A DNA stretch of 55,580 bases from an uncultured Planctomycetaceae bacterium (GTDB lineage: Bacteria; Planctomycetota; Planctomycetia; Pirellulales; UBA1268). The position numbers were made by a program, and so were the translations under genes. The stretch is taken from positions 1 through 55,580 of the forward strand of contig CAIXGY010000108.1 in assembly GCA_903919035.1 (NCBI GenBank), in the 5' to 3' direction. A model generated the notes under the pieces. That model saw only the letters and a list, made by a program, of their open reading frames with translations. It searched no databases and was not told the origin of the DNA. This document shows positions 28,673 to 51,493 of the stretch, piece after piece (position 1 is the stretch's first letter; every line of letters starts with the position of its first letter).

Positions 28673-28803
28673 TCGGGTCTGCCCATCCCCTCGAGACGGA
28701 GTCGACGGCAAGGGCAGGCATGGATGCCGGAGCGAAGCCGTCTCCGAGCGAAGTCCAGGATGGACGGAGCGAGCGTCCGTCGAGAGTCTGTGGGCAGACC
28801 CGA
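28673..28803 (+). repeat. Structured intergenic repeat, family A copy 1 (MITE/REP-like, GGA-loop hairpins)
   Basis: 13-bp terminal IR TCGGGTCTGCCCA/TGGGCAGACCCGA; internal hairpins GGCATGGATGCC (28717-28728) and GTCCAGGATGGAC (28753-28765); homologous to 47331-47462. Confidence 0.75.
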
Positions 28804-28872
28804 GCCGGTTGGGCGCAGAGACCGGCTCCCCACGAGATGCCCGAGTCACTCGACGCTCACGTATGAGCCGTG

Positions 28873-29505
28873 TCAGACCAGGCCGCGACGCACCGCCCAC
28901 ACGGCCGCCTGCGTGCGGTCGGAGACGGCGATCTTGCGGAGGATGTTTTGGACGTGCTCCTTCACGGTCTCCACGCTGATCGTGAGGGACTGGGCGATCT
29001 CCTTGTTCGACAGGCCCAACGCCATGTGGCGAAGCACCTGGGTCTCCCGCTGCGTGAGCGGAATGTCCGGGTCGGGCGGGCCGACACGGTTGGCCATCGT
29101 GGTGGCCACCCGCCGCATTTCACCGGCCCGGATGGGCAGTTGGCCCGCCGCGGCACCGGTGATCGAGTTGATGAGTTCACCGCGACTGCAGCCCTTCAGC
29201 ATGTAGTCGTGGGCGCCGGCCGCGACCGCCCGGGCCACGTAGGTCGGGTTGTCGAAGGTGGAGAGCATCACGCAGCGTACCGCCGGCATGTCCTTGCGGA
29301 TCTTCTCGAGCGCTCCCAGGCCGTCCTTGCCCGCCATGCGGATGTCGAGCAACACCACGTCGGGCTTGTGTTTCTTGGTCAACTTCACGGCCTCGTCGCC
29401 GTCCGTTGCCTCGCCGACGATTTTCACGTCGGAACCCGCCAACAGGCTCGCCAGACCGCGGCGAACCACTTCGTGATCGTCCGCGATGACAACCTTGACC
29501 GCCAT
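28873..29505 (-). CDS. NarL/LuxR-family response regulator
   Basis: IADDHEVVRRGL, LLDIRM receiver; LTQRETQVL..MALGLSNKEIAQSLTISVETVKEHVQNILRK HTH. Confidence 0.95.
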   Translation of the reverse strand: MAVKVVIADDHEVVRRGLASLLAGSDVKIVGEATDGDEAVKLTKKHKPDVVLLDIRMAGKDGLGALEKIRKDMPAVRCVMLSTFDNPTYVARAVAAGAHDYMLKGCSRGELINSITGAAAGQLPIRAGEMRRVATTMANRVGPPDPDIPLTQRETQVLRHMALGLSNKEIAQSLTISVETVKEHVQNILRKIAVSDRTQAAVWAVRRGLV

Positions 29506-29617
29506 GCGACCTCCCGGCGCGAGAAATGCCCCGAACCAACCGTTCGTTCGAGTGCCGGAATGCTATCAAGTCAAGAAACTTGAATCAACGGCCGGACGGG
29601 ATGCCGCCCCGCGCACG

Positions 29618-30622
29618 TCATGCTTCCGGCCCGTGCACGGACGCTGTCGCACGCATCCGGGACAGCATCTCGAGCGCTCCTCGCGTGGCAAGGTCCGCCG
29701 CAACCCGGCGTCCGAGCTCGACGGCGGCGCGGCGCGACACCCCGCTCCCTTCGCCGCTGGGGATCGACCCCTCCGCATCGATCCGGCGCACGGCCCCATC
29801 GCGTTCCTCGAAGACGCAGGCCCCCAGCACGAGCCCACGATGCGGTTCGACCCTGGCCCAGCCGCCGATCGGGGCGAGACAGCCGCCGGCGAGTTCCGCG
29901 AGACACGCCCGCTCGGCGCACACGGCCAGATGCGAGGCCTCGTGATCGAGAGCCGCGAGCGTCTGGCTGGTTCGCCCATCGTCGGCACGCATCTGCACTG
30001 CCAGGGCGCCCTGCGAGACGGCCGGCCAGAAGCGGTCGGGCCGCAGGACCTCGGTGATCCGGTCGCGGAGGCCAAGCCGCTCGAGTCCGGCCCCGGCCAA
30101 CACGAGGGCGTCGTAGTCGCCCGCGTCGAGCCGGCGCAGCCGGGTATCGACATTCCCGCGAAGCGGGCGCACCGCGAGATCCGGTCGCAGTGCCAGCACC
30201 TGCACGATCCGACGGACGCTCGACGTCCCAACCACGGACCCTGCCGGCAGGGCGTCGAGCGTCGCCGCGGTGCGACCGATGAGGACGTCGAAGGGTAGCG
30301 CCCGCTCTGGCACACAGGCCACGACGAGCCCCGGCGTCTCGGCGGTGGGCAGGTCCTTGAGGCTGTGCACGGCGGCGTCGATCCGCCGCTCCAGCAGGGC
30401 ACGCTCCAGTTCGCGGACGAATACTCCGTCGGCGCCGAGCGTCGCCACCGGCCCCTGCTGGTCGGTGTCACCGCGGGTGGTGATCACCTCCAGGTCCACC
30501 GCGACGCCCGTGGCCCGCACGCGGTCGGCGACCCAGTTGGTCTGCGTGAGCGCCAGCGCGCTCCCCCGCGTGCCGATGCGCAGCACGTCCGGAACGGTCA
30601 CTGCTGTGCGGTCGGTGGCCAC
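29618..30622 (-). CDS. hemC: Hydroxymethylbilane synthase (porphobilinogen deaminase)
   Basis: LRIGTRGSALAL.Q, AVHSLKDLP, GTSSVRR, RGNVDTRL, LAGGC (cofactor Cys); start approximate. Confidence 0.94.
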   Translation of the reverse strand: MATDRTAVTVPDVLRIGTRGSALALTQTNWVADRVRATGVAVDLEVITTRGDTDQQGPVATLGADGVFVRELERALLERRIDAAVHSLKDLPTAETPGLVVACVPERALPFDVLIGRTAATLDALPAGSVVGTSSVRRIVQVLALRPDLAVRPLRGNVDTRLRRLDAGDYDALVLAGAGLERLGLRDRITEVLRPDRFWPAVSQGALAVQMRADDGRTSQTLAALDHEASHLAVCAERACLAELAGGCLAPIGGWARVEPHRGLVLGACVFEERDGAVRRIDAEGSIPSGEGSGVSRRAAVELGRRVAADLATRGALEMLSRMRATASVHGPEA

Positions 30623-30653
30623 GGTGTTCGTTCGCCGTCGTGATCGACATCCA

Positions 30654-31394
30654 TCAGTCAGAGCCGGCCGCGTCGGCCCGCGCCACGACAGCAGCGTACA
30701 CCGCGGCGGCCCCTGCGGAGACGGCGGCCTCCGCACAGGCCTCCAGCGTCGAGCCCGTGGTCGTGACGTCGTCGACCAGCAGGATGCGCAGGCCGGCCAG
30801 CCGTCCCCGGCTGCGGAAGGCACCGCGCACGTTTCGGCGGCGGTCGCCCACCGGCAGCGTGTTTTGCATCACGGTCGCGCGGCTCCGCCGCAGCAGCCGG
30901 CGGCACGGCAGCCCCAGGCCTGCGGCGACCCCCCGGGCGAGTTCATCGGCGGCACTCGCACCCCGCCCGATCCGCCGCAGCCAGTGCATCGGCACCGGCA
31001 CCACCGCCTCGGGCATCCAGGCGGCCAGCGTGGATCGGTGCCGATGCACGAGGAGCGTCGCGAGCGTCGCAGCCACGGCCGAACCTGCGGGTCGCTTGGC
31101 CCGCAGGACGGCCGACCGCAACTCGTCGGCATAGGAGCCCAGCACCACGATCCCGTCCCAACGCCGGCGCTGACGCCGACATGCCGGGCAGCCCGTGACC
31201 GCGGCGGGCGCCCCGCATGCACCGCAGCGGTCGCCGTCGCGCGACAGCGCCATGACACAGGCGTCGCAGGCCAGCGGGTCGCCGGACGACTGCAACTCAT
31301 CCCCGCACATCGTGCAACGCGGCGGCAGCACCAGATCGAGCCCCGCCGAAGCCCAGCCCGCAGCCGCCGCCCACAGTCGCCCGAACCGTGCCAT
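30654..31394 (-). CDS. comF: ComF-family protein (zinc ribbon plus phosphoribosyltransferase)
   Basis: Paired CxxC motifs, VPVPMH, LLVDDVTTTGSTL. Confidence 0.85.
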   Translation of the reverse strand: MARFGRLWAAAAGWASAGLDLVLPPRCTMCGDELQSSGDPLACDACVMALSRDGDRCGACGAPAAVTGCPACRRQRRRWDGIVVLGSYADELRSAVLRAKRPAGSAVAATLATLLVHRHRSTLAAWMPEAVVPVPMHWLRRIGRGASAADELARGVAAGLGLPCRRLLRRSRATVMQNTLPVGDRRRNVRGAFRSRGRLAGLRILLVDDVTTTGSTLEACAEAAVSAGAAAVYAAVVARADAAGSD

Positions 31395-31528
31395 GCCCGC
31401 ACCGCTCCCGGTTTCGCGCCATCAGGCCGGGTGGCACCTGGGCCACGGCACCAATTGACGCTCCGCGGCCTTCAGCCTACCTTCCCCGCCCCCAACGCCC
31501 CACCTCCCCAGCCCGGCTCCGCAACGGC

Positions 31529-32659
31529 ATGCTCATCGATCGTTACGTCACCCGCGCGATGCTGCACGCGTTCGTGATCGTGTTCGTGAGTCTCGCGGGC
31601 CTGTATCTGGTGTTCGACGCGTTCACGAACATGGAGGAGTTCCTGGCCCACGCGGCCGAACAGGGAGGACTCGCGCGGGTGCTGGGTTCGTACTACGGCT
31701 GCCGGATGCTCTGGTTCTTCGACGCGACGAGCCCGATCGTGTCGATGGCCGCGGCGATGTTCGCCCTGTCGTGGCTGGAGCGTCACAACGAGCTCACTGC
31801 GCTCCTCGCCGCGGGCGTGACCCGCTGGCGGATCGCCCGGCCCGTGCTCGTGGTCGCGGCGGTCGTGAGCACGGCCGCGTTCGTCAACCGGGAGGCCTGT
31901 CTGCCTCGCATCCGCGGGGCCTTCGCCCGCAACGCCCAGGATCTGCGGGGCGATCGGCCTCAGCCCTTCGAGGCCCGCTACGATCACGCGACGGAGATCC
32001 TGTTCCGCGGCCGCGCCGCTCAGGCGGCCACCTGTCGCATCGAGGCCCCGAGCCTGTTGATGCCGCCGCAACTCGGCGAATACGGCACGCAGATCGACGC
32101 CGCAGAGGCGGTGTGGCGGCCAGCGACGGCGGACCACGCCGCCGGCTGGATCCTTTCGGGCGTCACCGAGCCGGCCGACGTCGACCGACTGCAGCCGCTC
32201 GTCACCGGGACGAGAACGGTGGCCTGCACGCGGGCCACGGCCCCGTGGCTGGAGCCGCGGCAGTGTTTCGTGGCCAGCGACGTCACGTTCGAGCAGATGA
32301 TCGGCTCGACCAACTGGAGCCAGTATTCCTCGACGCCCGAACTCGTGCGAGCGATCCGCAATCCGAGCCTCGGCGTGGGAGGCGACGTGCCGCTGCGGGT
32401 GCACTCCCGTTTCGTGGCTCCCCTGCTCGACATGACCCTCGTGCTGCTCGGTGTGCCACTCGTGCTCGGCCCCAGTCGCCGCGGCGTCTGGATTGCGGTG
32501 GGCATGTGCGTGGCCACCACGGTGGTGTTCTTCCTGACGGTGATGGGCGCCCAGGGCCTCGCGATGCAGGACATCTGCAGCCCCTGCATGGGCGCCTGGC
32601 TGCCGCTGCTCGTGCTCGCACCGCTCGCCGCCTGGCGGGCCCAGCCCATGTGGCAATGA
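31529..32659 (+). CDS. LptF/LptG-family LPS export permease
   Basis: MLIDRYV, RHNELTALLAAGV..WRI motif; 3+3 TM arrangement around a periplasmic domain. Confidence 0.87.
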   Translation: MLIDRYVTRAMLHAFVIVFVSLAGLYLVFDAFTNMEEFLAHAAEQGGLARVLGSYYGCRMLWFFDATSPIVSMAAAMFALSWLERHNELTALLAAGVTRWRIARPVLVVAAVVSTAAFVNREACLPRIRGAFARNAQDLRGDRPQPFEARYDHATEILFRGRAAQAATCRIEAPSLLMPPQLGEYGTQIDAAEAVWRPATADHAAGWILSGVTEPADVDRLQPLVTGTRTVACTRATAPWLEPRQCFVASDVTFEQMIGSTNWSQYSSTPELVRAIRNPSLGVGGDVPLRVHSRFVAPLLDMTLVLLGVPLVLGPSRRGVWIAVGMCVATTVVFFLTVMGAQGLAMQDICSPCMGAWLPLLVLAPLAAWRAQPMWQ

Positions 32660-32861
32660 TCCACGTGCCGTGGGCCCGCACGACCGGCACGCGCGGCACG
32701 ACCCGACGGCGCGGCAGGCTTCGCCGCATCCTCCGGGTTTCTCCAGGCCTTTTTTCTCCACGTCGTCCGCCCCGCCTGCCGATCCCTCCAGTGCGGACGG
32801 GTCGTCCGCACCGCGTGGCACAGGAACGCCCGCGGGCAAAACCGGGCGAGGGAGTGCCACC

Positions 32862-33302
32862 ATGCAGATCTTCACGACGAGATTCGGTCGCCTCGAGGTC
32901 GCCGCCGGCGACGTGATCCGGTTTCCCAGCGGACTGCCCGGACTCGAGGACTGCCGGGAATGGGCCCTGCTGGCCGACGCCGCCAACGATGCGGTGGGCT
33001 GGCTGCAGAGCGTCACCCGCGCCGAGGTGGCCCTGGCGGTGGTGAGCCCGCGACGCTTCGTGCCGGACTATCGCGTGCGGATTCCCCGCACCGAGTTGCA
33101 GCCGCTCGACCTCGCCGACATCCGCGACGCGCAGGTCGTGGTCGTGGTCGGTAAAACCGACACGACCCTCGCGCTCAATCTCAAGGCGCCGATCGTCATC
33201 AACGTCGAAACCCGCATGGGCAGGCAAGTCGTCGCCAGCGGCGACCTTCCGCTGCGTCTCGAACTCGTGCCCGGCCGACCGCCTCTCAAACGGAGTGCAT
33301 AA
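32862..33302 (+). CDS. fliW: Flagellar assembly factor / CsrA antagonist FliW
   Basis: TTRFG, I.FPSGLPGLE, WLQS, P..FVPDY, LNLKAPIVIN...GRQVV; adjacent to csrA. Confidence 0.92.
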   Translation: MQIFTTRFGRLEVAAGDVIRFPSGLPGLEDCREWALLADAANDAVGWLQSVTRAEVALAVVSPRRFVPDYRVRIPRTELQPLDLADIRDAQVVVVVGKTDTTLALNLKAPIVINVETRMGRQVVASGDLPLRLELVPGRPPLKRSA

Positions 33303-33310
33303 TCAACCTG

Positions 33311-33356
33311 ACGGAAGGCGTGGAACCGCCGGAGCCACGCCCGGATCGGGAAGGAG
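33311..33356 (+). promoter_or_regulatory. Cluster of putative CsrA-binding GGA sites in the csrA leader
   Basis: Six GGA in about 45 nt, one in hairpin GGCG-TGGAAC-CGCC and one overlapping the SD (AAGGAG). Confidence 0.5.
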
Positions 33357-33362
33357 CCAGCC

Positions 33363-33617
33363 ATGCTCGTACTCTCCAGACAACGAGACGAAAGCATCAT
33401 GATCGGCGACAGCATTGTCGTCACGATCGTCGACATTCGGGGAGACAAGGTCCGCCTCGGGATCAATGCCCCGGCGGAGGTCCCGGTGCACCGACAGGAG
33501 GTCTACGAGGCCATCCAGCGGGAAAACCACCGGGCCAGTCAGTTGCAACCCGGCGATGCTCGGGATCTCGGGAAGTTCGCCGGCCGCAGTCGGCCGGGCG
33601 ACGCCCCACGGCGCTGA
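33363..33617 (+). CDS. csrA: Carbon storage regulator CsrA, FliW-responsive type (Asn55)
   Basis: MLVLSR..ESI.IG...GDKVRLGINAP..VPVHRQEVYEAIQREN. Confidence 0.95.
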   Translation: MLVLSRQRDESIMIGDSIVVTIVDIRGDKVRLGINAPAEVPVHRQEVYEAIQRENHRASQLQPGDARDLGKFAGRSRPGDAPRR

Positions 33618-33687
33618 GCACCTGTCAACGGCCGCGCCTGCCCCGTTCGCCGACGCGCCGAGATTGCGGCCGCGCGACGGGATCGTG

Positions 33688-34269
33688 TCAGGCGTGGAAG
33701 TACGGCGGCTCGTGGCCGGCCTTCCACTTGATGTTGCACCCGATGCTCGGGACCTGATCCGGCACCGGTGGCCGGCCCGCCACGAGCGCGTCGAGCGCCG
33801 CCCGTAGGTCGCTGCCCGTCACGGGCACGTCGCTCCCGGGCCGGCTCGGATCGAGCTGGCCGCGGTAGACGAGCTTGCGTGCGGCGTCGAAAAGATAGAA
33901 GTCCGGGGTGCAGGCCGCCCGGTAGTCCTTCGCCGTCTCCTGCGTCTCGTCGTAGAGATACGGAAATGGATACCCCCGGTCCTCGGCCTCACGGACCATC
34001 TGCTCGGGCGAATCGGCCGGATGCGTGGAGACGTCGTTGGAGCTGATGGCCACGAACCCGATCCCGTGGGATTGGTAGTCGCGGCCGAGCCTCGCCAACT
34101 CGTCGGCCACGTGTTTCACGAAGGGGCAGTGGTTGCAGATGAACATCACGACGGTCCCCTTCGATCCGGCGACGGCGGCGAAGGAGAGGATGCGGCCATC
34201 CACGTTGGGCAGCGAAAAATCCGGGGCCACCGTGCCGAGCGGCAGCATCGTGCTGGGGGTGCGGACCAT
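33688..34269 (-). CDS. Thioredoxin-fold AhpC/TSA (redoxin) family protein
   Basis: FICNHCPFVKH, ACTPDF, SIGCNIKWK. Confidence 0.9.
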   Translation of the reverse strand: MVRTPSTMLPLGTVAPDFSLPNVDGRILSFAAVAGSKGTVVMFICNHCPFVKHVADELARLGRDYQSHGIGFVAISSNDVSTHPADSPEQMVREAEDRGYPFPYLYDETQETAKDYRAACTPDFYLFDAARKLVYRGQLDPSRPGSDVPVTGSDLRAALDALVAGRPPVPDQVPSIGCNIKWKAGHEPPYFHA

Positions 34270-34460
34270 GGGGATCTCCGGGGGCTCGTCGCCTGCCGTA
34301 CAGGACGGATCGCGGCACAGGCCTACAAATAGACCATGAGCCGGTCGATGGCTCCATCACCGCCGGGTTCCGGGCCGGGGGTGCGCGGTGGGCGAAGGGC
34401 CGCCCGTGCGGCAACCAGACCCTTGCCAGGCGCCGGCCGAGGGACGAAAGTATCTGCAGG

Positions 34461-36110: not shown

Positions 36111-37877
36111 ATGAATTGCCTGCGCGATCTCTGGGCGGTATTGGCGAACCGGCAACGCCGTGCCGCAGGGGGCGTGTTGCTGTTGATGGTTGTCGGCACG
36201 CTGCTGGAAACCCTCAACGTCGGGATGATCCTGCCCGCGTTGGCCGTGCTGACGGGTGACTCATCAGCCGTGCCTGCCGCGCTCCGCCCCTGGATCGGAT
36301 CGGTTGGCGACGACACGACGCCCCGCGCGGTGATCCTCGTGTTGCTCGGCCTCGTCGCGGTCTATGCGGTGAAATCCGCCTACCAACTCGGCGCCGCCTA
36401 TGCGTCCACGCGGTTCGCACAGAGCGTGCAGGCCGACACGAGCAACCGGCTGTTTTCCATCTTTCTCGCCCAGCCCTGGCAGTACCACCTCCAGACCAGT
36501 TCGAGCGCGATCCAGCATGCCATCAGCGAAACGCAGCAACTCACCCTGATCTGCAATCAGGTGATCCAGGTGCTCTCGGAACTGCTCGTGCTGGCAGGGT
36601 TGCTCGTGCTCCTGCTGGTGCTGGAGCCGCTCGGCACCGTCGTGGTGGGCGGCCTGCTCGGCCTCGCCTTTTGCGTGTTCGCCGCCGTCGCGCAACCGCT
36701 GACCCGCCGCTGGGCGGCGGCCCGTCGGCAGCACGCGCGGATGTTGATCGAGCAGACCCAGCAGGCCGTGGGCGGCGCCCGCGAGGTGAAGATCAGCGGC
36801 GCGGAACAGGAATTCCTCGCCCGGTTCCGCGTCCAGGCCGACGGCGTCGCCCGCATGGCCAGCCTCAAGGCACTGGTCGAACAATGCCCGCGGCAGATCT
36901 TCGAGCTGATCGCGCTGATCGCCCTCACGGTCCTTACCGTGACCCTGGCCGCGGAGGGCCGGCCGGCCCGCTCGCTGCTGCCCATGCTCGGGCTGTTCGC
37001 CACAGTCGCCTTCCGCATGCTGCCGTCGGTCAACCACACGGCCGTGTCCATGCAGCGACTGCATCAGTACGAGCCGATCCTCCGTTCCCTGCGCACGCAC
37101 CTGGCGCTCTCGGACTCCCTGCTCCCGCCGGCACCGACCCACTCGCGGCCGTTTCGTGATCAGATCCGCATCGAGAACGTGGTCTACCGCTACCCGGGAC
37201 GGAGCGAGCCGGCGCTGCGGGGCGTCGATCTCGAGATTCCGCGGGGCGCGAAGGTCGGCATCATCGGCGGCAGCGGCGCCGGCAAGAGCACGCTCGTGGA
37301 CGTCCTCCTCGGCCTGCTCGTGCCGTCCCAGGGCCGCGTGACCGTCGACGGCGTCGACGTCCACGACGACGTGCGTGGTTGGCAGTGGACCATCGGCTAC
37401 GTGCCACAGACGATCTACCTGGCCGACGACACCATCCGGCGCAACGTGGCATTCGGCGTTCCGGAGCGCTGCATCGACGACGACGCCGTCCGCCGCGCAT
37501 TGGCGGCCGCCCGCCTCGACGAATTCGTCGCCGACATGCCCGCCGGCATCGAGACGAGCGCCGGCGAGTGGGGCGCGGGGCTTTCCGGCGGCCAGCGTCA
37601 GCGGATCGGGATCGCCCGCGCCCTCTACATCGACCCGCAGCTGCTGGTGCTCGACGAGGCGACCAGCAGCCTCGACGGTGACACCGAACGCGAGGTGATG
37701 GCGGCGGTCGACGCGTTGCACGGCACCAAGACGCTCGTGATCGTGGCGCACCGATTGAGTACGGTGGCGAACTGCGACATCATCTACCGGGTCGAGGGGG
37801 GACGGGTGGTCAAGTCCGGCGCCTTTGCGGAGGTCGTGCCAGCCGGGGCCGGGGCGACGCAGGCCGACCTCGGGTGA
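36111..37877 (+). CDS. ABC transporter fused permease/ATPase (PglK/MsbA-like flippase)
   Basis: N-terminal TM bundle, GGSGAGKST, LSGGQRQRIGIARALY, LDEATSSLD, VAHRL. Confidence 0.9.
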   Translation: MNCLRDLWAVLANRQRRAAGGVLLLMVVGTLLETLNVGMILPALAVLTGDSSAVPAALRPWIGSVGDDTTPRAVILVLLGLVAVYAVKSAYQLGAAYASTRFAQSVQADTSNRLFSIFLAQPWQYHLQTSSSAIQHAISETQQLTLICNQVIQVLSELLVLAGLLVLLLVLEPLGTVVVGGLLGLAFCVFAAVAQPLTRRWAAARRQHARMLIEQTQQAVGGAREVKISGAEQEFLARFRVQADGVARMASLKALVEQCPRQIFELIALIALTVLTVTLAAEGRPARSLLPMLGLFATVAFRMLPSVNHTAVSMQRLHQYEPILRSLRTHLALSDSLLPPAPTHSRPFRDQIRIENVVYRYPGRSEPALRGVDLEIPRGAKVGIIGGSGAGKSTLVDVLLGLLVPSQGRVTVDGVDVHDDVRGWQWTIGYVPQTIYLADDTIRRNVAFGVPERCIDDDAVRRALAAARLDEFVADMPAGIETSAGEWGAGLSGGQRQRIGIARALYIDPQLLVLDEATSSLDGDTEREVMAAVDALHGTKTLVIVAHRLSTVANCDIIYRVEGGRVVKSGAFAEVVPAGAGATQADLG

Positions 37878-44903: not shown

Positions 44904-45272
44904 TCAGCCCTTCAGGTCGTCGGCGCGGTCGACGTCGACCGTCGCGTGGTTGTTGTAGAAGTTAAGCGTGATGGCCAACGCCACCGCGGCCTCGGCCGCC
45001 GCGAGCAGGATCACGAACAGGGCGATGATCTGCCCGTCGAGCCCCAGCGACCGCGCCCCGTCGGCCTGCAGATAGGGAGACGCGAAGGCCACGAAGTTGA
45101 CGTTGGCCCCGTTGAGCACGAGTTCGATCCCCATGAGCACGCCCAGGGCGTTCCGCTTCACCGCCATGCACGCCACACCGGCCACGAACAGGACCGCGCC
45201 CACGACGAGATAGTGGGCCACGCTCACGGGGCCGACGAGGGTTGCCAGCGGCAGGACGGTAAGCCCGGTCAT
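44904..45272 (-). CDS. nuoK: NADH-quinone oxidoreductase subunit K
   Basis: LMGIELVLNGANVNFVAF, AAAEAAVALA. Confidence 0.94.
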   Translation of the reverse strand: MTGLTVLPLATLVGPVSVAHYLVVGAVLFVAGVACMAVKRNALGVLMGIELVLNGANVNFVAFASPYLQADGARSLGLDGQIIALFVILLAAAEAAVALAITLNFYNNHATVDVDRADDLKG

Positions 45273-45964
45273 ACGGAACCTCCCGTGAGCACCGAGGCCG
45301 CACGCCCCGCGCTGCGGCCGATCGCGGCGTGTTCCGCGACCGCAGTCGGGGGCTCGGCCGACGCCGCAACCTCGATCGCCCGCGGCGTCTTCCGCCGCTT
45401 GGCCCGGGCGAGGTAGGCCGCGCCGACGAGCACGACGAGCAGGTGGACCGACACGATCTCGAAAGGCAGGAGGTAGCCGCTCCTCACCGCCGCCGCGGGC
45501 GCGTTGGCGGGCGGCGCATCCACCCGGACGCCGACCAGCGCCATCCCGATCGGCGTGGCGGCCGGCTCGGTGAGCCGGTGCGACCCGGGCTGTCGCCAGG
45601 CCTCGACCGACAGACCCGCCGTCACGAGCAAACCGAACAGCCCGAGGCCCACGATCGTCGCCAGGGCCCGGTCACCGGCCGTCGTCTTGATCGACACGAA
45701 GGGCGCCTGGGCCGTGAGCATCACGCCGAACACGAGCAAGACGAGCGTGCCGCCGACGTAAATCATGAGTTGCATCGCGCCCACGAACTCGGCGCCCGCC
45801 AGGAAAAACAGGCCGGCCGTCGCCCCGAGCGAGAGCACGAGGTAGAGCGCCATCCGCACGACGTTGTCGGCCGCCACGACGGCGATCGCTCCGCCACACG
45901 CGACGGCCGCAAACAGGAGGAAAAAGACGGCGTGCCAGTCGATGGCGGCGAGCGTCGGAATCAT
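45269..45964 (-). CDS. nuoJ: NADH-quinone oxidoreductase subunit J
   Basis: GAEFVGAMQLMIYVGG..VL..FGVML, YLLPFEIVSVHLLV; ATGA overlaps with nuoH and nuoK. Confidence 0.93.
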   Translation of the reverse strand: MIPTLAAIDWHAVFFLLFAAVACGGAIAVVAADNVVRMALYLVLSLGATAGLFFLAGAEFVGAMQLMIYVGGTLVLLVFGVMLTAQAPFVSIKTTAGDRALATIVGLGLFGLLVTAGLSVEAWRQPGSHRLTEPAATPIGMALVGVRVDAPPANAPAAAVRSGYLLPFEIVSVHLLVVLVGAAYLARAKRRKTPRAIEVAASAEPPTAVAEHAAIGRSAGRAASVLTGGSV

Positions 45965-47175
45965 GGAGCCACCCGTGCCACGGCTGCGGGTTCGTCGGTC
46001 GCCTGAGCTGGGGCTGCCGCGGCCTTGCCGCCCGGGCCCTCGAGCCAGCCCTCCCGGATCTCGCCGGCGGGCCGCGAGAGGCCGGCCACCAGTCCGCCCG
46101 GCAGCGCCACCTGCCAAAGCATCGCACCGGCGAACATCGCCGCGGCGATCGGCGTGCAGTACTTGAGGCAGGTCGACATCACCTGGTCGATGCGGAGCCG
46201 CGGCAGCGTCCAGCGGATCCACATCATCACGAGCACGCCGAGCGTAGCCTTGCCGAGCAGGTTTGCGAGCCCCAAGAGCCTGACCAGGTAGTGGGCCGTG
46301 TCGCCGGTGCCCTCGGACAGCCCCGCGAGCGTCGCCACCGGAATCGGGCCGTTCCAGCCGCCGAGGAAGAGCACGGCCGCCATCGCACTCACGAGGAACA
46401 TCGAACCGTACTCGGCCATGAAGAAGTAGCTCCACCGCAGGCCGGAATACTCGGTGTGGAAGCCGGCGACGAGTTCGCTCTCCGCTTCGGCAAGGTCGAA
46501 GGGAGCCCGATTCACGCTCGCCACCGCGCAGGTGACGTAGACCCAGAAGATCACGAACGTGAAGGGGTCGTGAAACAGGTACCAGCTCCAGAACCAGCCC
46601 GCCTGTTTCTCGGCGATCGTCACCATGTCCATGGTGCCGGCGAGCATGACCGGCACCACCACGCACATGCCCAGCGGAACCTCGTAGCTCACGACCTGTG
46701 CCGCCTCGCGCATCGCCCCGAAGAGCGACCACTTCGATGCCGACGCGTAGCCTGCCAGGATGACGCCGAAGACCTCGAGACCGAGCACGGCCACCACGAA
46801 AAACACGGCCACGTTGAGCCGCTGGCCCACGACGTCAAATGCGAACGGCAGGCAGATGAACGCGCAGAACGACGCGCAGAAGCTGACGTAGGGAGCGAGC
46901 CGGAAGAGCAGGCCGTCGGCCCCGTCCGGCATCAGATCTTCCTTGGCCAGCAGTTTGATGCCGTCGGCCACCGACTGGAGCCAGCCGAACCGGCCACCGG
47001 TTCGCGTCGGCCCGAGGCGATCCTGGATGCGTCCCGCGATTTTTCGCTCGGCCCAGATGAAGACGAGCGCCCCGCCGGCGATCACATTGAGGATCAGCAC
47101 AGCGGACACGACGGCCGCGACCGTCCACGCCAGCCAGAACGGGAAACGCGCCGTGTTGAACAGGAATTCGACCAT
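45961..47175 (-). CDS. nuoH: NADH-quinone oxidoreductase subunit H
   Basis: ERKIAGRIQDRLGP, ADGIKLLAKE, NRAPFDLAEAESELVAGFHTEYSG, LPRLRIDQ. Confidence 0.96.
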   Translation of the reverse strand: MVEFLFNTARFPFWLAWTVAAVVSAVLILNVIAGGALVFIWAERKIAGRIQDRLGPTRTGGRFGWLQSVADGIKLLAKEDLMPDGADGLLFRLAPYVSFCASFCAFICLPFAFDVVGQRLNVAVFFVVAVLGLEVFGVILAGYASASKWSLFGAMREAAQVVSYEVPLGMCVVVPVMLAGTMDMVTIAEKQAGWFWSWYLFHDPFTFVIFWVYVTCAVASVNRAPFDLAEAESELVAGFHTEYSGLRWSYFFMAEYGSMFLVSAMAAVLFLGGWNGPIPVATLAGLSEGTGDTAHYLVRLLGLANLLGKATLGVLVMMWIRWTLPRLRIDQVMSTCLKYCTPIAAAMFAGAMLWQVALPGGLVAGLSRPAGEIREGWLEGPGGKAAAAPAQATDEPAAVARVAP

Positions 47176-47239
47176 CGTGTTCGACCGTGCCGCGGCGTCC
47201 AAAGTCGCCCGAACCCGCGGATTTCCCGGGCGTTGGCGG

Positions 47240-47263
47240 ACTTCGTGAAAAATCGCACGAAGT
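47240..47263. promoter_or_regulatory. Palindromic operator-like site upstream of nuoH (Rex-like geometry)
   Basis: ACTTCGTG-AAAAATCG-CACGAAGT: 8-bp perfect arms, GTG-N8-CAC core with AT-rich spacer. Confidence 0.4.
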
Positions 47264-47330
47264 TTGCCTTACCCCGCCCCTTTCCACAAGTGCCGGCAGG
47301 CGATCGGCGATTTTTCCGCGCTCACAGTGA

Positions 47331-47462
47331 GGGGTTGCCCGTACCGTCGAGCCGGCATGGGTGACCAGCGTAGCCCGGAGGGCGAAGGGCAGGCACCTTC
47401 GAGTGAGCGGAGGGCATGGATGCCCGCAGCGATCGTCCGTGCGAGATGGTACGGGCAACCCC
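47331..47462 (+). repeat. Structured intergenic repeat, family A copy 2
   Basis: 15-bp perfect terminal IR GGGGTTGCCCGTACC/GGTACGGGCAACCCC; internal GGGCATGGATGCCC hairpin (47412-47425); aligns with 28675-28801. Confidence 0.78.
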
Positions 47463-47557
47463 GGCCGGCCAACGGGCCGCTGACCACTCAAGCGATGCGC
47501 GGCTCGCCCGGACGGCAAGCCGGCGGGCGCCCCGCACCTTGACTGTGCCCCGCCCGC

Positions 47558-47599
47558 CTTCAGCTCGCGAAGGCCAGGGATGGCTTCGCGAGCGTGAAG
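47558..47599 (+). repeat. Long hairpin with CAGGGATG loop abutting the nuoD stop
   Basis: CTTCA-GCTCGCGAAG-GCCA-GGGA-TGGC-TTCGCGAGC-G-TGAAG. Confidence 0.65.
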
Positions 47600-48805
47600 T
47601 CAGCGATCGATCTCACCCATCACGATGTCGAGCGACCCCACGATCGCGGGCACGTCGGCGATCAGGCAGCCCTTGCAGAGCTCGGGGGCCACCGACAGGT
47701 TCGAGAACGAACTCGACCGGGCCCGCGCCCGCCACGGGATCGCCGCGCCGTCGCTGACGACATAGAAACCCATCTGCCCCTTCGGGGCCTCCGTCTCCAG
47801 GTAGGCGTCGCCCGCCGGCATCTTCTCGGTGAGTTTGAGCGGCTCGCCGATCGTGCCCTTGGCGGATGCGTAACGGTCGATCGACTGCCGCACGAGATCC
47901 ATCGATTGCACCACCTCCAGCATCCGCACGAAGAACCGGTGCCAGCAGTCGCCGAGCACCGCGTCGGCGGGCACCGGTGGATACTCGTGGTCGCGGGGGT
48001 AGTGGCCGTCCTTCATGACGGCCACCTCGAAGGCGTAGCCGTCGTACATCGCCGTGTAGATCGCCTCTCCGTCCCGCCGCATGTCCTGGTCGACGCCGCT
48101 GCCACGCAGCACGGGGCCGGAGCAGCCGTAGTCGATCGCCATCTCGCGCGAGAGCACGCCGATGGCGGCCGTGCGCTTCACGAAGATGGCGTTGGTCGTC
48201 AGCAGCGCGTGGTATTCCTTGATGATCGGCTCGAACTGGTCGAGGAACTTCTCGCACTTCGCCAACCAGCCCGGCGGCAGGTCGGCCGTGAGGCCGCCGA
48301 CGGTGATGTAGCTGTAGGTGAGGCGGGCGCCGCAGGCCTCCTCGAAGAGGTCGAGGATCTTCTCCCGCTCACGGAAGGCGTAGAGGAAGGGGCTGAACGT
48401 GCCGAGGTCGAGGCCGTAAGCCCCCATGCCCACGAGGTGGCTGGCGATGCGGCCGAGTTCGCAGATCAGCACGCGGAGGTGACGGGCCTTCTCGCTCACC
48501 TCGTATTTCATCAGCTTCTCGACGGCCAGGGCCCAGCCGAGATTCATGTTCATCGCGGCGAGGTAGTCCATCCGGTCGGTGTAGGGGATGAACTGGCGGT
48601 GGGTGAGGTTCTCGCCGATCTTCTCCGCGCAGCGGTGGAGATAACCGATGTGCGGCTCGATCTCCGAGACGATCTCGCCGTCGGTGCGGAGCACGAGCCG
48701 CAGCACGCCGTGGGTGCTGGGGTGCTGCGGCCCCATGTTGACGAGCATCTCGTCGGTGCGGACGTCGAACTCGATGATCCGCGGGTCGTCGGCGACGGAA
48801 GCCAT
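47600..48805 (-). CDS. nuoD: NADH-quinone oxidoreductase subunit D
   Basis: NMGPQHPSTHGVLRL, IGYLHRCAEK, DRMDYL, EAPKG, GSLDIVMGEIDR. Confidence 0.97.
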   Translation of the reverse strand: MASVADDPRIIEFDVRTDEMLVNMGPQHPSTHGVLRLVLRTDGEIVSEIEPHIGYLHRCAEKIGENLTHRQFIPYTDRMDYLAAMNMNLGWALAVEKLMKYEVSEKARHLRVLICELGRIASHLVGMGAYGLDLGTFSPFLYAFREREKILDLFEEACGARLTYSYITVGGLTADLPPGWLAKCEKFLDQFEPIIKEYHALLTTNAIFVKRTAAIGVLSREMAIDYGCSGPVLRGSGVDQDMRRDGEAIYTAMYDGYAFEVAVMKDGHYPRDHEYPPVPADAVLGDCWHRFFVRMLEVVQSMDLVRQSIDRYASAKGTIGEPLKLTEKMPAGDAYLETEAPKGQMGFYVVSDGAAIPWRARARSSSFSNLSVAPELCKGCLIADVPAIVGSLDIVMGEIDR

Positions 48806-48844
48806 GGTTGGTGTTCCTGAAGATGTACCAGTGTAGTCACATCG

Positions 48845-48936
48845 GGCATCGCAGGATGCGATGCCGGCGATCGAGGGAACACTCGGCGTTCCCTCCGATC
48901 GCCCACGCAGGAGAAGGCATGGAGGACTTTTCCTGC
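48845..48936 (+). repeat. Structured intergenic repeat, family B copy 1 (three hairpins, two GGA loops)
   Basis: GGCATCGCA-GGA-TGCGATGCC; GGCGATCGAGGGAAC-ACTCGGC-GTTCCCTCCGATCGCC; GCAGGAGAAG-GCATGGAGGA-CTTTTCCTGC (contains a G.U pair that works only on the + strand). Confidence 0.75.
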
Positions 48937-48942
48937 ATGAAC

Positions 48943-49473
48943 CTAGCGACCGCGGATGCCGTGGTATTCGAGCGGCATCTCGTAGTCCTTGCGCAGCGGA
49001 TGGCCCTCCCAGTCTTCCGGGCAGAGGATGCGGCGGAGGTCGGGATGGCCGGTGAACAAGACACCGGAGAGATCGTAGACCTCGCGCTCGTGCCAGTCTG
49101 CCGACCGCCACACTCCGGTCACGCTCGGGATCTCCGGAATCTGGCCGGGCACGTCCCCCTTCCACCTCGGCAGCGAGCACTTGAGCACGAGGCTCACCCG
49201 CGAGCCCGTGCTCCACAGGTGGTAGACCATCTCCAAGTGCGGCTGCCACGCAACTTTTGCGGCCTTCTTGGGATCGGGCTCGAACCAGTCGATGGCGGTG
49301 ATGCACTCGATGGCATCGAACCGCACCGGGCTCTTGTGCTTGAGCCAGCCGCAGACCTCGGCGATCCGCTCTGGAGCCACCTCGACCCATGGGTCGAGGG
49401 CGTCGAGTTTCGTGCCGGTGACGGCGCCCGGAAGGGCGGCTTCGAGCTGTTCTAGGAAGGCTGGGCCGCGCAT
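48943..49473 (-). CDS. nuoC: NADH-quinone oxidoreductase subunit C
   Basis: [40 protein letters not shown]. Confidence 0.95.
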
Positions 49474-49500
49474 GGGTGGATCACTCGGGAGACGAAGGGA

Positions 49501-50124
49501 TCAGGCGGCGCGTTCCGCAGACACGGCCCGCACCCAGTCGAGGTCGCCGCGGTACCACACGTAGGCGAAGCCCACGAGCAACACCGCGAAGAACGCGGCC
49601 ATGTCGGCCACCGCCGTCCAGGCGAGCATCGAACCGGTACGGGCGACGGCCCACGAGCCGAGGGCCTGCGCCTCGGTCTTCTCACCGCGACGGGCGGCGA
49701 TCGCCCGGGCCTCATCGAGTTTCGGCGTCAGATACAGCCCCTGCTGTGCGGGCGCGACCGGATCACGGAGCCCGAGTTCGCGATAGAGGCCGGTGGCAGC
49801 GGGAGTCAGCGTGCCGTCGGCCTGCACGGTCTGCAACGCCGGATCGGTCAGTTGCGTGGCCTTGCCGAACACCGTGGCCCACGGAAAGAAGAGGGCCACT
49901 TCCACGTCGAAGATGATGAACAGCAGTGCGACCACGTAGAACCGCAGGTCGAACTGCACGAAGCTCGAGCCGATGGTCGGCTCGCCACACTCGTAGACCT
50001 CGAGTTTCTCCGTGTTCGGCAGCCGTGGCCGCACGAGCCAGCCGACGAGCAGATTGACGGCCAGAAACGCCCCGCCGACCGCAACGAACAGGGCCACGTA
50101 TCCGGCAATGAGGACGGGATGCAT
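49501..50124 (-). CDS. nuoA: NADH-quinone oxidoreductase subunit A with a long loop insertion
   Basis: K...YECGE, FYVVALLFIIFDVEVALFFPWA, GFAYVWYRGDLDW. Confidence 0.93.
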   Translation of the reverse strand: MHPVLIAGYVALFVAVGGAFLAVNLLVGWLVRPRLPNTEKLEVYECGEPTIGSSFVQFDLRFYVVALLFIIFDVEVALFFPWATVFGKATQLTDPALQTVQADGTLTPAATGLYRELGLRDPVAPAQQGLYLTPKLDEARAIAARRGEKTEAQALGSWAVARTGSMLAWTAVADMAAFFAVLLVGFAYVWYRGDLDWVRAVSAERAA

Positions 50125-50145
50125 GAAAGGCCGTGGGGGCTGACG

Positions 50146-50673
50146 TTACTGGTTGGGACCGCCGTGAACCGGCTCGACGATCACCTTCGAGGCGGCGACC
50201 GCGGTGGGGTTGAGCGTGGAGCGGCCCCAGGCGACCTCCACCGGCAGCCGCGCGAAGTCCACGATGGTTCCGTCGCGGCTGTAGCAGGAGAGGTCGAGCG
50301 TGGAGCCCATGAAGATGCAATCGACGGGGCACGGCTCCACGCACAGGGCGCAGAACATGCACTTCGAGTAGTCGATCGTGAATCCGCTGACGCGAAAGCC
50401 CTTGCCGTTCTCGACCCGTTCCTTGCCGATATAGATGCAGTCCACCGGACAGGCCTTCGAGCACTGGTCGCAGGCGATGCACGTGGTGAGGTCGTAGCGG
50501 TGGAAGCCGCGGTAGCGGGCCGCCACGGGGGCCGGCAGTTCCGGATACTGGAAGTGCTCGGTGAACGTGCGACGCTTCTGGTCGTAGGTGCTGCCAAAGA
50601 CCCGCAGCGTCACTGCCATGCCTTCGAGCACCGTGCGGACGGCCGTGACGAGGTTGCGAAACCACTCTCTCAT
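50146..50673 (-). CDS. nuoI: NADH-quinone oxidoreductase subunit I (2x[4Fe-4S])
   Basis: QYPE, RYRGFH, CIACDQCSKACP, CMFCALCVEPCP. Confidence 0.93.
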   Translation of the reverse strand: MREWFRNLVTAVRTVLEGMAVTLRVFGSTYDQKRRTFTEHFQYPELPAPVAARYRGFHRYDLTTCIACDQCSKACPVDCIYIGKERVENGKGFRVSGFTIDYSKCMFCALCVEPCPVDCIFMGSTLDLSCYSRDGTIVDFARLPVEVAWGRSTLNPTAVAASKVIVEPVHGGPNQ

Positions 50674-50918
50674 GGCAGATCCGGGACGGGTGCGGAGCCG
50701 GCGCCCGCGACGGCTCGTGGAAACGACGAGAGTATAGAAGTGCCCTCCCGACCAACAAGCCGCGCGTGCGGCGGCCGCGATTCCGCGCTCGGCCGACGGC
50801 CGCGAGCCCGAAAGTGTCCGATGCCAACCGGATCGAGAAGGCAGCAGACGGGCCACAGATTTTCCGCACAAACTCCGCAGTATACCCGCATTTTTTTACG
50901 GGTTGGCCCGCGATTTGC

Positions 50919-50982
50919 TTGACCGGGGCCTGAAAACCCTTACAGTTCAGGTGTCGGTCACGGTCCCTGCCAAAGGAATGGC
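50919..50982 (+). promoter_or_regulatory. Candidate promoter and GGA-loop hairpin over the SD of the second csrA
   Basis: TTGACC-N16-TACAGT; GCCA-AAGGAA-TGGC hairpin at 50969-50982, ending 2 nt before the ATG. Confidence 0.45.
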
Positions 50983-50984
50983 CC

Positions 50985-51233
50985 ATGCTCGTCCTTTCGC
51001 GGAAAAAAGACGAGAGCATCGTCATCAACAACGACATCACGATCGTCGTTGTCGAAATCCGTGGGGACAAGGTGCGCCTTGGGGTCGAGGCACCCAAGGA
51101 AGTTCCCGTCCACCGACGGGAGGTCTTCGAGGCCATCGCCCGCGGTGAGACGCTCGACCCGGCCGCATCCGCGGATGCCTCAGGTTCGGTCGGCGAACCC
51201 GAGACGGGCGGTGCCGCGGCCGGCGAAGCCTGA
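50985..51233 (+). CDS. csrA: Second CsrA paralogue (Glu at position 55)
   Basis: MLVLSRKKDESIVI...GDKVRLGVEAPKEVPVHRREVFEAI; RNA-binding Leu4 and Arg44 intact. Confidence 0.94.
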   Translation: MLVLSRKKDESIVINNDITIVVVEIRGDKVRLGVEAPKEVPVHRREVFEAIARGETLDPAASADASGSVGEPETGGAAAGEA

Positions 51234-51315
51234 TCGCCCGCGTGGCCGGAGTGCCGGTTCGCGCCTATCAGTTTCTCGGGTACGCTCGCGAAGGTCAGGT
51301 TTAGCCGAGCCACTC

Positions 51316-51388
51316 GGCCCCATCGTCTAGAGGCCTAGGACATCGCCCTTTCACGGCGGTAACCGGGGTTCGAATCCCCGTGGGGTCA
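51316..51388 (+). tRNA. tRNA-Glu (anticodon TTC), CCA not encoded
   Basis: GGCCCCA/TGGGGTC acceptor stem, TCGCC-CTTTCAC-GGCGG anticodon arm, GGTTCGAATCC T-arm. Confidence 0.96.
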
Positions 51389-51398
51389 TTGCTGTACC

Positions 51399-51493
51399 GC
51401 GGCCCGAGCCATTCATGGCCTCGTGCCGCTCTGTCGATCGCAGGCAACGCCGAGGGTTGCCTGGATCGACAGAGCGTTGCATCCAGCGACGCC
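51399..51493 (-). repeat. Structured intergenic repeat, family B copy 2 (inverted relative to copy 1)
   Basis: Central hairpin matches the reverse complement of 48866-48903 at 31/38 nt; flanking hairpins read GCGTCGC-TGGAT-GCAACGC and GCCATGAATGGC on the minus strand. Confidence 0.75.

Follow-up and report, generated by a model that had tools for sequence, protein, structure and literature searches.

CsrA binds A(N)GGA presented in a hairpin loop, within the consensus (A/U)CANGGANG(U/A), and one CsrA dimer can bridge two such sites that are 10–63 nt apart on the same RNA. The sRNAs of the CsrB/RsmZ type carry 5–22 of these sites and are encoded by one or a few dedicated genes; the word repeated in CsrB is reportedly CAGGA(U/C/A)G. 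Correia/NEMIS, ERIC, RUP, and BOX are structured bacterial MITEs and long repeats, which are often co-transcribed with their neighbors, and strand-specific transposition via single-stranded DNA is known from IS200/IS605 and REP/RAYT. For REP/REPIN elements, head-to-head dimers, singletons with partner remnants, and a location at gene ends have been described (PMC3733652). In the FliW-type Csr system of Campylobacter jejuni it is reportedly the flaA mRNA and not a dedicated sRNA that titrates CsrA via GGA sites (PMC4894983).

The window analyzed here, a stretch of 55,580 nt from an uncultured Planctomycetaceae bacterium, contains, as the initial annotation had proposed, fliW, directly followed by csrA-1, and a second csrA (Table 1); all three matched Pfam. 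Both CsrAs are canonical and align over the whole fold with solved CsrA and RsmE, their best solved relatives being 5DMB (chain D for csrA-1), 1Y00, and 2JPP, and the csrA beside fliW encodes a product with a C-terminal extension, as in FliW-CsrA modules. In total the genome has one fliW and four CsrA matches. As to flagellin, the third partner of such a module, Flagellin_N and Flagellin_C had no match in the assembly, in which FlhA is present but split at contig ends; the absence of flagellin is probably an assembly gap. Since Planctomycetota usually have many CsrA paralogues (PMC13443453), "two CsrA plus FliW" is nothing special, and several CsrA paralogues together with FliW are ordinary for this order.

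Table 1. Features of the window (positions count from its first letter; hairpins are predicted and written on the strand given)
Feature	Position	Strand	Description
Family A copy A1	28617–28872	+	nhmmer 28662–28827; CM R1 28656–28833, 141.5 bits
A1 inverted partner-unit remnant	28620–28643		
A1 leader	28664–28674		GAGGAAGGATC
A1 Y-shaped core	28675–28801		followed by 3′ tail
A1 hairpin H1	28717–28728	+	GGCATGGATGCC; GGCA-UGGA-UGCC, includes CAUGGAUG
A1 hairpin H2	28753–28765	+	GTCCAGGATGGAC; GUCCA-GGA-UGGAC, includes CAGGAUG
fliW	32670–33302 (longest ORF)	+	PF02623, E 6.8e-30; Pfam match spans 32916–33242
csrA-1	33363–33617	+	PF02599, E 1.2e-25; 84 aa; directly 3′ of fliW
Family A copy A2 (core only)	47330–47463	+	nhmmer match; in nuo operon, antisense to nuo
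A2 outer stem	47331–47348 paired with 47445–47462		
A2 hairpin H1	47374–47382	+	CCCGGAGGG; CCC-GGA-GGG
A2 hairpin H2	47412–47425	+	GGGCATGGATGCCC; GGGCA-UGGA-UGCCC
Solo hairpin	47555–47590	+	loop CAGGGATG / CAGGGAUG; fold −23.5 kcal/mol, z −2.2
nuoD	47600–48805	−	Complex1_49kDa, E 9.8e-81; A2 and solo hairpin on one side, B1 on the other
Family B copy B1	48809–48956	+	nuoC-nuoD spacer, antisense to nuo; CM R2 104 bits
B1 hairpin	48845–48865	+	GGCATCGCAGGATGCGATGCC; GGCAUCGC-AGGA-UGCGAUGCC
B1 central hairpin		+	loop ACUCGGC
B1 hairpin	48916–48927	+	loop CAUGGAGG; CATGGAGG at 48918
csrA-2	50985–51233	+	PF02599, E 3.2e-25; upstream of tRNA-Glu; best solved relative 2JPP
tRNA-Glu (UUC)	51316–51388	+	adjoins B2
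Family B copy B2	51378–51515	−	between tRNA-Glu and next + strand gene; CM R2 105.8 bits

The GGA motifs that the initial annotation had located in four intergenic elements and a solo hairpin are all where it placed them, each in a predicted hairpin loop, with B2 degenerate as described. Its view of the four elements as repeats holds: they are copies of two real dispersed families, A (A1 and A2) and B (B1 and B2). The solo hairpin, just beyond the nuoD stop and antisense to nuo, belongs to no family and gave only one weak additional nhmmer match. Family A has 287 nhmmer matches in the 3.46-Mb draft genome, of which 165 lie no more than 300 nt from a contig end. Its core of about 170 nt is built from an 18-bp outer stem, an inverted repeat that encloses two arms; a conserved leader and tail lie outside, and no target duplication was resolved. 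Often the units form head-to-head pairs of two diverged subtypes, and singletons carry partner remnants; among 57 adjacent pairs, 47 are head-to-head, the two units being separated by about 18–20 nt. A1 fills the entire intergenic space between a xerC-like and a response-regulator gene, with its GGA face sense to the former. Family B (23 nhmmer or 34 CM matches in this genome) is a row of four hairpins of about 140 nt with ends close to CTAGCAGAC...GACAGCTAG; CTAG is found at both ends in only 7/29 and 1/20 copies, and here, too, no duplication was resolved. In B2 the GGA face is the minus strand, and in the degenerate outer hairpins TGGA is kept while CATGAATG replaces CATGGATG. All matches of both families are 130–260 nt long. 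A third family, C, also exposes GGA, its exposed word being GGAGGAG.

Within this genus of freshwater planctomycetes, family A was found in 18/18 and family B in 17/18 of the species sampled; in the other families of the order neither was found, except for one weak B match. The sites of A1, A2, and B1 are empty in sister species, which amounts to presence/absence polymorphism: the intergenic space orthologous to that of A1 is only 2–23 nt long in G006, G013, and G033, A2 and the solo hairpin are absent at the orthologous site in G013, G033, and G035, and the B1 spacer has 137 nt here versus 15–39 nt in G013, G016, G033, and G035. The nuoD orthologues are 86–91% identical. Being short, non-coding, and dispersed in many copies, A and B are genus-specific small repeats, insertion-variable and MITE-like.

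The hairpins of both families are supported by covariation. In family A, 85.5% of the cells are paired versus 35–44% with the partners slid, compensatory changes occur in 30/43 pairs, and the observed values were reached by none of 500 shuffles; in family B the corresponding figures are 86.3% versus 30–44% and 21/40 pairs. Read on the GGA strand, family A has 219 G·U versus 42 A·C cells, and twelve columns hold at least four G·U versus one with at least four A·C. For family B in this genome (19/23 copies used) the numbers are 35 versus 7, and the consensus fold reaches −31.4 kcal/mol on the GGA strand versus −22.6 kcal/mol on the other; across species the family B ratio is only 27 to 21. The strand that the pairing pattern singles out as folded is the one carrying the GGA loops.

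The loops are kept well beyond background. In other species GGA is present in H1 of 103/117 and in H2 of 104/117 family A copies, on at least 15 different stems; in this genome it is present in 89/111 and 62/111 full copies, a large subfamily (28/111) having ACGAC or ACGAA instead in H2. Family B has GGA in hairpin 0 of 24/29, in H1 of 18/29, and in H3 of 28/29 copies and never in the central loop; the 11/29 copies with no GGA in H1 mostly have ACGAN. By comparison, a set of 572 unrelated hairpins (stems at least 8 bp long) has GGA in 21 sense and 33 antisense loops (about 4–6%). The pattern (N)GGA(U/G) is retained while the stems substitute compensatorily, and the loop words CAGGAUG and CAUGGAUG, both of which fit the CsrA/RsmE consensus, are found repeatedly in A and in B, on hairpins that are not related to one another. 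As in a CsrA site, for which CA(N)GGAUG is the preferred context, GGA is displayed by short hairpin loops, and the predicted sites of A1 (GGA at 28722 and 28758, about 38 nt apart; about 40 nt in family A generally) lie at a distance that one CsrA dimer could bridge. Taken by itself, CANGGANG shows no enrichment in the window (45 matches versus 41.8 expected; 37/100 shuffles reached 45), so that this count gives no support; the signal resides in the repeat families.

The repeats are real, apparently undescribed structured mobile elements with CsrA-type sites, and because their hairpin tips keep the CsrA-type GGA they are candidate CsrA decoys. Our tentative reading, which we consider possible rather than probable, is that A and B are dispersed putative CsrA-binding modules carried by selfish repeats, with no dedicated CsrB-like sRNA tier. 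Each family folds on one particular strand into GGA-loop hairpins, and on this reading the loops owe their conservation to a factor that acts in trans and recognizes them in single-stranded nucleic acid, the most likely reader being CsrA, on RNA. The GGA-containing RNA would arise when a copy is co-transcribed with a gene running into the element. There is opportunity for this, since of the solo A units 85 have a readable 5′ flank and 59 of these lie directly downstream of a co-oriented gene; the effect could be either a weak and diffuse titration of CsrA or a local action on the host transcripts. That the GGA strand is transcribed, that CsrA binds it, and that any regulation follows is our inference. 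Weighing against this reading are the unbiased orientation of family A and the mostly antisense one of family B, the nearly neutral evolution of single copies, the copies with ACGAC, ACGAA, or ACGAN in place of GGA, the small cross-species excess of G·U over A·C in family B, and the results on csrA number, promoters, and Rfam given below.

Rather unlikely, but still to be taken seriously, is that the elements are purely selfish, their own mobilization machinery reading the GGA hairpins while the element is in single-stranded form, as DNA or RNA, and that they resemble CsrA sites by coincidence. Private substitutions affect 3.9% of stem positions, 3.2% of GGA triplets, and 4.5% of unpaired sites, and private stem changes created G·U 40 times versus A·C 30 times. 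This comparison gave no clear sign of purifying selection on single copies, which look nearly neutral since stems and GGA mutate about as often as unpaired sites; selection seems to act on propagating lineages, which favors this view. The insertion polymorphism agrees with this, as does the lack of an orientation preference in family A between co-directional genes (14 sense versus 18 antisense here, 10 versus 7 elsewhere), and strand-specific folding with G·T tolerance would be expected also from strand-specific single-stranded-DNA transposition. The head-to-head heterodimers, moreover, resemble REP dimers (PMC3733652). However, the genome, which is 97.5% complete, has no Y1/RAYT, TnpB, or IS110-type gene (the search for a cognate transposase covered these three families only, and MAGs often come without IS copies), and Y1_Tnp/RAYT is present in only 1/5 well-assembled genomes of the genus. 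The same loop words are, furthermore, common to two sequence-unrelated families and therefore call for one common reader. The hairpin-reading transposases known so far recognize their elements by stems, bulges, or tetranucleotides in the flanks, and not by loops.

Distinctly unlikely in our view is that A and B are REP-like structural elements, acting as bidirectional transcription barriers, as stabilizers of mRNA 3′ ends, or as sites at the DNA level, with GGA incidental or favored for stability. Their placement speaks for it, the elements being overwhelmingly at gene 3′ ends: solo A loci with both flanks called lie between convergent genes in 25, co-directional genes in 32, and divergent genes in 2 cases in this genome, and in 13, 17, and 1 cases in other species. 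The head-to-head A pairs lie between convergent genes, so that incoming transcripts each meet the antisense face first, which counts against the CsrA reading, and the 18-bp outer stem can fold on either strand (−70.5 and −67.3 kcal/mol). This explanation, however, accounts neither for loop conservation over at least 15 stem variants and in two families nor for the excess of G·U over A·C in family A, and no U-tract terminator was found after the stems of the elements.

The "two-tier Csr system" of the initial annotation is plausible but unproven. In a far-reaching form, which we consider improbable, the mobile repeats would have become the RNA side of Csr regulation in this genus, antagonizing FliW-independent CsrA paralogues, with GGA hairpins scattered into 3′ UTRs and operon spacers as a distributed sponge coupled to transcription and as a source of new CsrA-controlled transcripts. 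If true, no earlier case of CsrA being antagonized by RNA would come from outside the Proteobacteria, and none would have been spread by transposable elements. The strong version of the initial annotation, in which the repeats are a regulated second tier, a sponge that antagonizes those paralogues in the CsrB/RsmZ manner, is highly doubtful, although the exposed GGA sites are many (about 290 A matches plus B and family C), one FliW faces four CsrA, and Rfam 15, searched with the whole window at gathering thresholds and with 28600–28900 at E ≤ 10, returned only two tRNAs and thus no Csr sRNA family. No sigma-70-like promoter adjoins the elements in a scan that is weak for planctomycetes, nor was another sign of independent transcription found at them, and single copies evolve nearly neutrally. 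The repeats do not go with csrA copy number: the genus has 3–5 CsrA matches and the repeat-less other families of the order have 2–13, so that relatives with more paralogues do without such repeats. As to orientation, the caveat that the GGA face is antisense to its surroundings is right for A2, B1, B2, and the solo hairpin but does not extend to family A in general, which is unbiased; family B is mostly antisense to genes (1 sense versus 6 antisense here, 2 versus 6 in other species). A dedicated second tier stays hypothetical because the tests of csrA number, promoter, Rfam, orientation, and selection are unsupportive. Very improbable, finally, is that the loops are Shine-Dalgarno mimics or sites for another RNA-binding factor (30S, unknown protein) rather than for CsrA, for although some loops read GGAG or GGAGG (CCCGGAGGG, CUGGAGGCC) and family C exposes the word given above, most have AGGAU or UGGAU with C-G and A-U as closing pairs, which fits the CsrA loop consensus and leaves only 3–4 nt for anti-SD pairing, and the elements are at gene 3′ ends and not before start codons.

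Read as putative CsrA-binding modules, the repeats resemble CsrB, CsrC, and RsmX/Y/Z of the Gammaproteobacteria in having several GGA motifs in predicted hairpin loops; one of their loop words, CAGGAUG, is identical to that reported for CsrB, and the two loops are spaced so that a CsrA dimer could bridge them. Unlike these sRNAs they occur in a different phylum, as mobile elements dispersed in hundreds of copies, each with 2–3 sites, with no promoter or terminator of their own in the weak scan and no Rfam match. With Correia/NEMIS, ERIC, RUP, and BOX they share a length of 100–250 nt and the property of being non-coding, intergenic, high-copy, genus-confined, insertion-polymorphic, and foldable; in contrast to these, A and B conserve the loops of internal hairpins on covarying stems, have a loop motif common to two unrelated families, and lack an identified cognate transposase. 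The head-to-head dimers of diverged A subtypes, the singletons with partner remnants, and the gene-end location are like those of REP/REPIN, which are, however, palindromes of 20–40 bp, whereas family A units are about 170 nt long with a three-way junction, and follow no GTAG or CGTC tag logic; RAYT was found neither in this genome nor in more than 1/5 genomes of the genus. And whereas in C. jejuni a single abundant mRNA, flaA, reportedly titrates CsrA, mobile repeats would here scatter the candidate sites across numerous transcripts.

The predicted GGA loops are the core of the finding. Both dispersed repeat families of the window, A and B, include a CAGGAUG-type and a CAUGGAUG-type hairpin, words that are known from the CsrB repeats and the RsmE/CsrA consensus. 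Family A presents its loops on the hairpins of its two arms (H1 and H2). In a cross-species set of 117 copies, whose loci were selected for a conserved core word or for top model scores and without regard to the loops, GGA stands in H1 of 103 and in H2 of 104 copies; the loops without it belong mostly to truncated copies or to ones bearing an inserted mini-hairpin. The stems beneath the GGA loops vary widely (e.g., GCCA/UGGC, AGGC/UGCC, AGCC/GGGC, CCCA/UGGG, GUCA/UGAC, GACA/UGUC, ACCA/UGGU). For comparison, the sense loop of 572 background hairpins (perfect stems of at least 8 bp, outside family A, between co-directional flanks) reads GGA in 21 and UCC in 33 cases. The loops are thus kept far above background, on varied stems, in agreement with what the initial annotation had expected of CsrA-binding hairpins. 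The mini-hairpin, of about 31 nt (CGGGCACCGAUCCGC..GCGGAUUGGUC), lies within the H1 or H2 loop of some 10 of the 117 copies, as if inserted into the GGA loop or set in its place. Among the 111 full-length copies of the source genome (G000), GGA was found in H1 of 89, in H2 of 62, in both of 49 and in neither of 9, and one subfamily there has the H2 loop ACGAC or ACGAA. In family B (29 copies from 17 genomes), GGA occurs in hairpin 0 (usual loop GUGGAACA) of 24, in H1 (AGGAU) of 18 and in H3 (NGGA) of 28 copies; the central hairpin, with CCUYGGC as its usual loop, has it in none of the 29.

The draft assembly to which the window belongs as contig C108 comprises 3.46 Mb in 338 contigs, with 69.6% G+C and 97.5% completeness. 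All hairpins named by the initial annotation exist, each with a GGA loop in its minimum-free-energy fold, and so do the fliW-csrA pair and the second csrA that it had listed (see table). Compared with shuffled sequence, the bare word CANGGANG is no commoner in the window than chance would give (45 occurrences versus 41.8 expected; at least 45 in 37 of 100 shuffles). Comparison of the window with its own genome revealed two strongly repeated segments, 28611-28909 (depth up to 115) and 47325-47471 (depth up to 103). Family A has 287 matches in this genome by iterated nhmmer; family B has 23 copies by a more sensitive search and 34 by covariance model. The four elements that had been proposed as dispersed repeats are indeed such, A1 and A2 belonging to family A and B1 and B2 to family B, and the hairpin named beside them is a true singleton, member of no repeat family. 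No Rfam family matched the repeats (window scan; A1 region). Three further stretches, 12595-13189, 16444-16660 and 37245-37844, are also repeated, 4-9 times in the genome, and from their position within long ORFs are probably paralogous coding segments.

Repeats, hairpin and genes of the window, with folding energies of the two family A copies
Feature	Position (nt)	Strand	Remark
XerC-like recombinase gene	27693-28616		
A1 (family A)	28617-28872	+	-70.5 kcal/mol on GGA strand, -67.3 on opposite
Conserved 3' tail of A1	28802-28872		
LuxR-type response regulator gene	28873-29505	-	
fliW	32670-33302	+	
csrA-1	33363-33617	+	best likeness: CsrA of entry 5DMB
A2 (family A)	47330-47463	+	-78.1 kcal/mol on GGA strand, -68.1 on opposite
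Solo hairpin	47555-47590	+	
nuoD	47600-48805	-	
B1 (family B)	48809-48956	+	nuoC-nuoD spacer
csrA-2	50985-51233	+	best likeness: RsmE of 2JPP
tRNA-Glu	51316-51388	+	
B2 (family B)	51378-51515	-	3' of tRNA-Glu

Family A begins with a leader (often GAGGAAGGAUC), followed by an 18-bp outer stem, a three-way junction with two arms tipped by H1 and H2, the invariant CGAACGUCCGGCGAGA and a conserved tail. This tail, an extra 3' segment seen in A1 and at many contig ends and ending ...CACGTG.GA.CCGTAT.AG, lies outside the core, so that the mobile unit is longer than the 170-nt core. The fold was curated on 36 diverse copies (from clustering of the 111 full-length copies at 90% identity, with the two window copies added). 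An RNAalifold consensus of the whole HMM-aligned set of 111 had been poor and was rejected. In the curated set 85.5% of cells are paired, versus 35-44% with the 3' partners slid, and 30 of the 43 pairs vary by compensatory change, values that were reached by none of 500 shuffles. Adjacent units are head-to-head, about 18-20 nt apart, in 47 of 57 pairs, which usually join two diverged subtypes; A1, which takes up the entire intergenic space, itself retains 24 nt of a partner unit. It should be noted that for 165 of the 287 matches a contig end is no more than 300 nt away, mostly on their 5' side, which indicates that such pairs break the assembly and that the true copy number is above the count.

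Family B consists of four hairpins in tandem, with 86.3% of cells paired versus 30-44% when slid and compensatory changes in 21 of 40 pairs (20 copies, our own structure). The genome has a third such family, named C, which folds back on itself over about 110 nt and has 54 nhmmer matches (41 of at least 90 nt; e.g., C216:5416-5530), none of them in the window; its internal loop shows GGAGGAG and CGACGGA on the better-folding strand (consensus -41.3 versus -28.2 kcal/mol). A separate block of about 75 nt 3' of nuoD (47222-47300) is conserved in the sister species G013, G033 and G035 and holds the hairpin CTTCGTGAAAAATCGCACGAAG, then a T-run on the plus strand, with a terminator-like match at 47291-47309.

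A G·U pair on one strand is a C·A mismatch on its complement. On the GGA strand of family A (the strand whose predicted loops read GGA), the 42 modelled pairs contain 219 G·U cells versus 42 A·C, with at least four G·U in twelve columns and at least four A·C in one. The folding energies of A1 and A2 (see table) favour that strand as well. For family B in the source genome the count is 35 versus 7 and the consensus folds with -31.4 kcal/mol on the GGA strand versus -22.6 on the opposite one (19 of 23 copies; the remaining four, divergent or truncated, were left out); across species it is 27 versus 21. By these counts, structural constraint acts on the GGA strand, clearly in family A and less clearly in family B. 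This fits RNA and single-stranded DNA alike, and the data do not separate them.

Both families are certainly mobile, structured MITE/REP-like repeats. The covariance model of family A has matches in all 18 other sampled genomes of the genus, at least 86 in several of them, and in none of 12 genomes that represent the order's other families; the family B model has 5 to 100 matches each in 17 of the 18, and one weak match (E 6e-5) among the 12. Copies of family A also occur in public freshwater-lake MAGs labelled Planctomycetia, Pirellulales or Planctomycetaceae, on which ground the source organism is taken here for an uncultured planctomycete of freshwater, and a pattern scan of metagenome contigs gave 119 matching stretches, which have no bearing on expression. 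At orthologous sites the spacers differ. For example, the xerC/regulator spacer with A1 measures 256 nt here versus about 23, 9 and 8 nt in G006, G013 and G033 (match coordinates; by alignment, both stop codons are 2 nt apart in G013), the nuoC-nuoD spacer with B1 measures 137 nt versus 15-39 nt in G013, G016, G033 and G035, and A2 and the solo hairpin are absent from the spacer downstream of nuoD in G013, G033 and G035. The elements were thus gained or lost on a speciation time-scale. Target-site duplications were resolved for neither family. A search of the 97.5% complete genome, confined to Y1_Tnp, TnpB and IS110-type genes, found none, and RAYT/IS200, TnpB and IS110 were rejected as mobilisers; Y1_Tnp is present in one of five well-assembled relatives.

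With respect to the neighbouring genes, the antisense placement seen in parts of the window is not general in family A: between co-directional genes, solo units are 14 sense and 18 antisense in the source genome and 10 and 7 in other species. For family B the numbers are 1 and 6, and 2 and 6, respectively. Some of these loci may be orthologous and hence not fully independent. Head-to-head pairs of family A lie mostly between convergent genes, so that incoming transcripts meet the antisense face first. Of the solo units with a readable 5' flank, 59 of 85 are directly 3' of a co-oriented gene, and read-through could therefore often transcribe the GGA strand. GGA is retained in H2 of 24 of 36 such units versus 2 of 10 others, a small sample confounded by subfamily and therefore given no weight. 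Promoter scans, which have little power in this phylum, found no sigma-70-like promoter at the elements. Private substitutions in four subfamily clusters of family A affect 3.9% of stem, 4.5% of unpaired and 3.2% of GGA sites, those in stems producing 40 G·U and 30 A·C, with no clear signal of purifying selection on single copies (84 of 111 copies). Individual copies thus look nearly neutral in sequence, the constraint being seen between lineages, not within. Nor is csrA copy number tied to the repeats: genomes of the genus have 3-5 CsrA matches, and those of the other families (G019-G030), in which neither repeat was detected, 2-13.

Repeat families of one genus that are otherwise unrelated share a loop motif, and carry it on the folding strand, which suggests that a single trans-acting factor reads the GGA loops of them all. 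To our knowledge, CsrA is the sole well-known factor specific for such loops, and the source genome has four canonical copies of it. The repeats may be dispersed CsrA-binding modules, a reading that we put forward tentatively as the likeliest of those weighed. Our estimates for the different readings overlap and are not meant to add up to one. Orientation, copy-level neutrality, csrA numbers, the negative promoter scans and the negative Rfam search count against a host-level CsrA function. That the repeats are purely selfish is rather unlikely; their mobility, the nearly neutral single copies and the lack of orientation bias in family A suit it, the loop motif shared by unrelated families does not. 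We regard a REP-like structural role as unlikely; the pairs between convergent genes would agree with it, the varied stems under constant loops and the G·U asymmetry less so. The regulated sponge of the initial annotation, its strong version, is improbable; the negative promoter scans, the csrA numbers and the nearly neutral single copies weigh on it. A Shine-Dalgarno-like or other reader of the GGA loops is very unlikely.

Planctomycetota have numerous CsrA paralogues. The genome has four CsrA matches, all canonical, and one FliW match, and we know of no RNA antagonist of CsrA in Planctomycetota, so that the control of the remaining CsrAs is the question at stake. Flagellin_N and Flagellin_C were not found in the assembly, which contains FliW, CsrA and FlhA (the last split across two contig ends), and probably fall into a gap that repeated flagellin genes have left in the assembly. 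The assembly thereby leaves FliW with no visible partner and offers no flagellin leader as native CsrA site for comparison. Two or three unrelated families with a shared CsrA-type loop on the folding strand are a concrete and cheaply testable case. If binding is real, mobile elements can spread sites for a global RNA-binding regulator, which would open a path to fast rewiring of post-transcriptional networks; if it is not, the families remain well-defined structured repeats that are worth covariance models for annotation, the more so as family A fragments MAG assemblies of this freshwater lineage.

CsrA is described as prevalent across Planctomycetota, and among bacteria in general some genomes carry up to 15 copies (PMC13443453). 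In a search of full texts, neither the repeats nor CsrA sites on MITE/REP elements were found described. The closest published context is a survey of REP repeats that covers head-to-head heterodimers and also families that have no dedicated transposase (PMC3733652).
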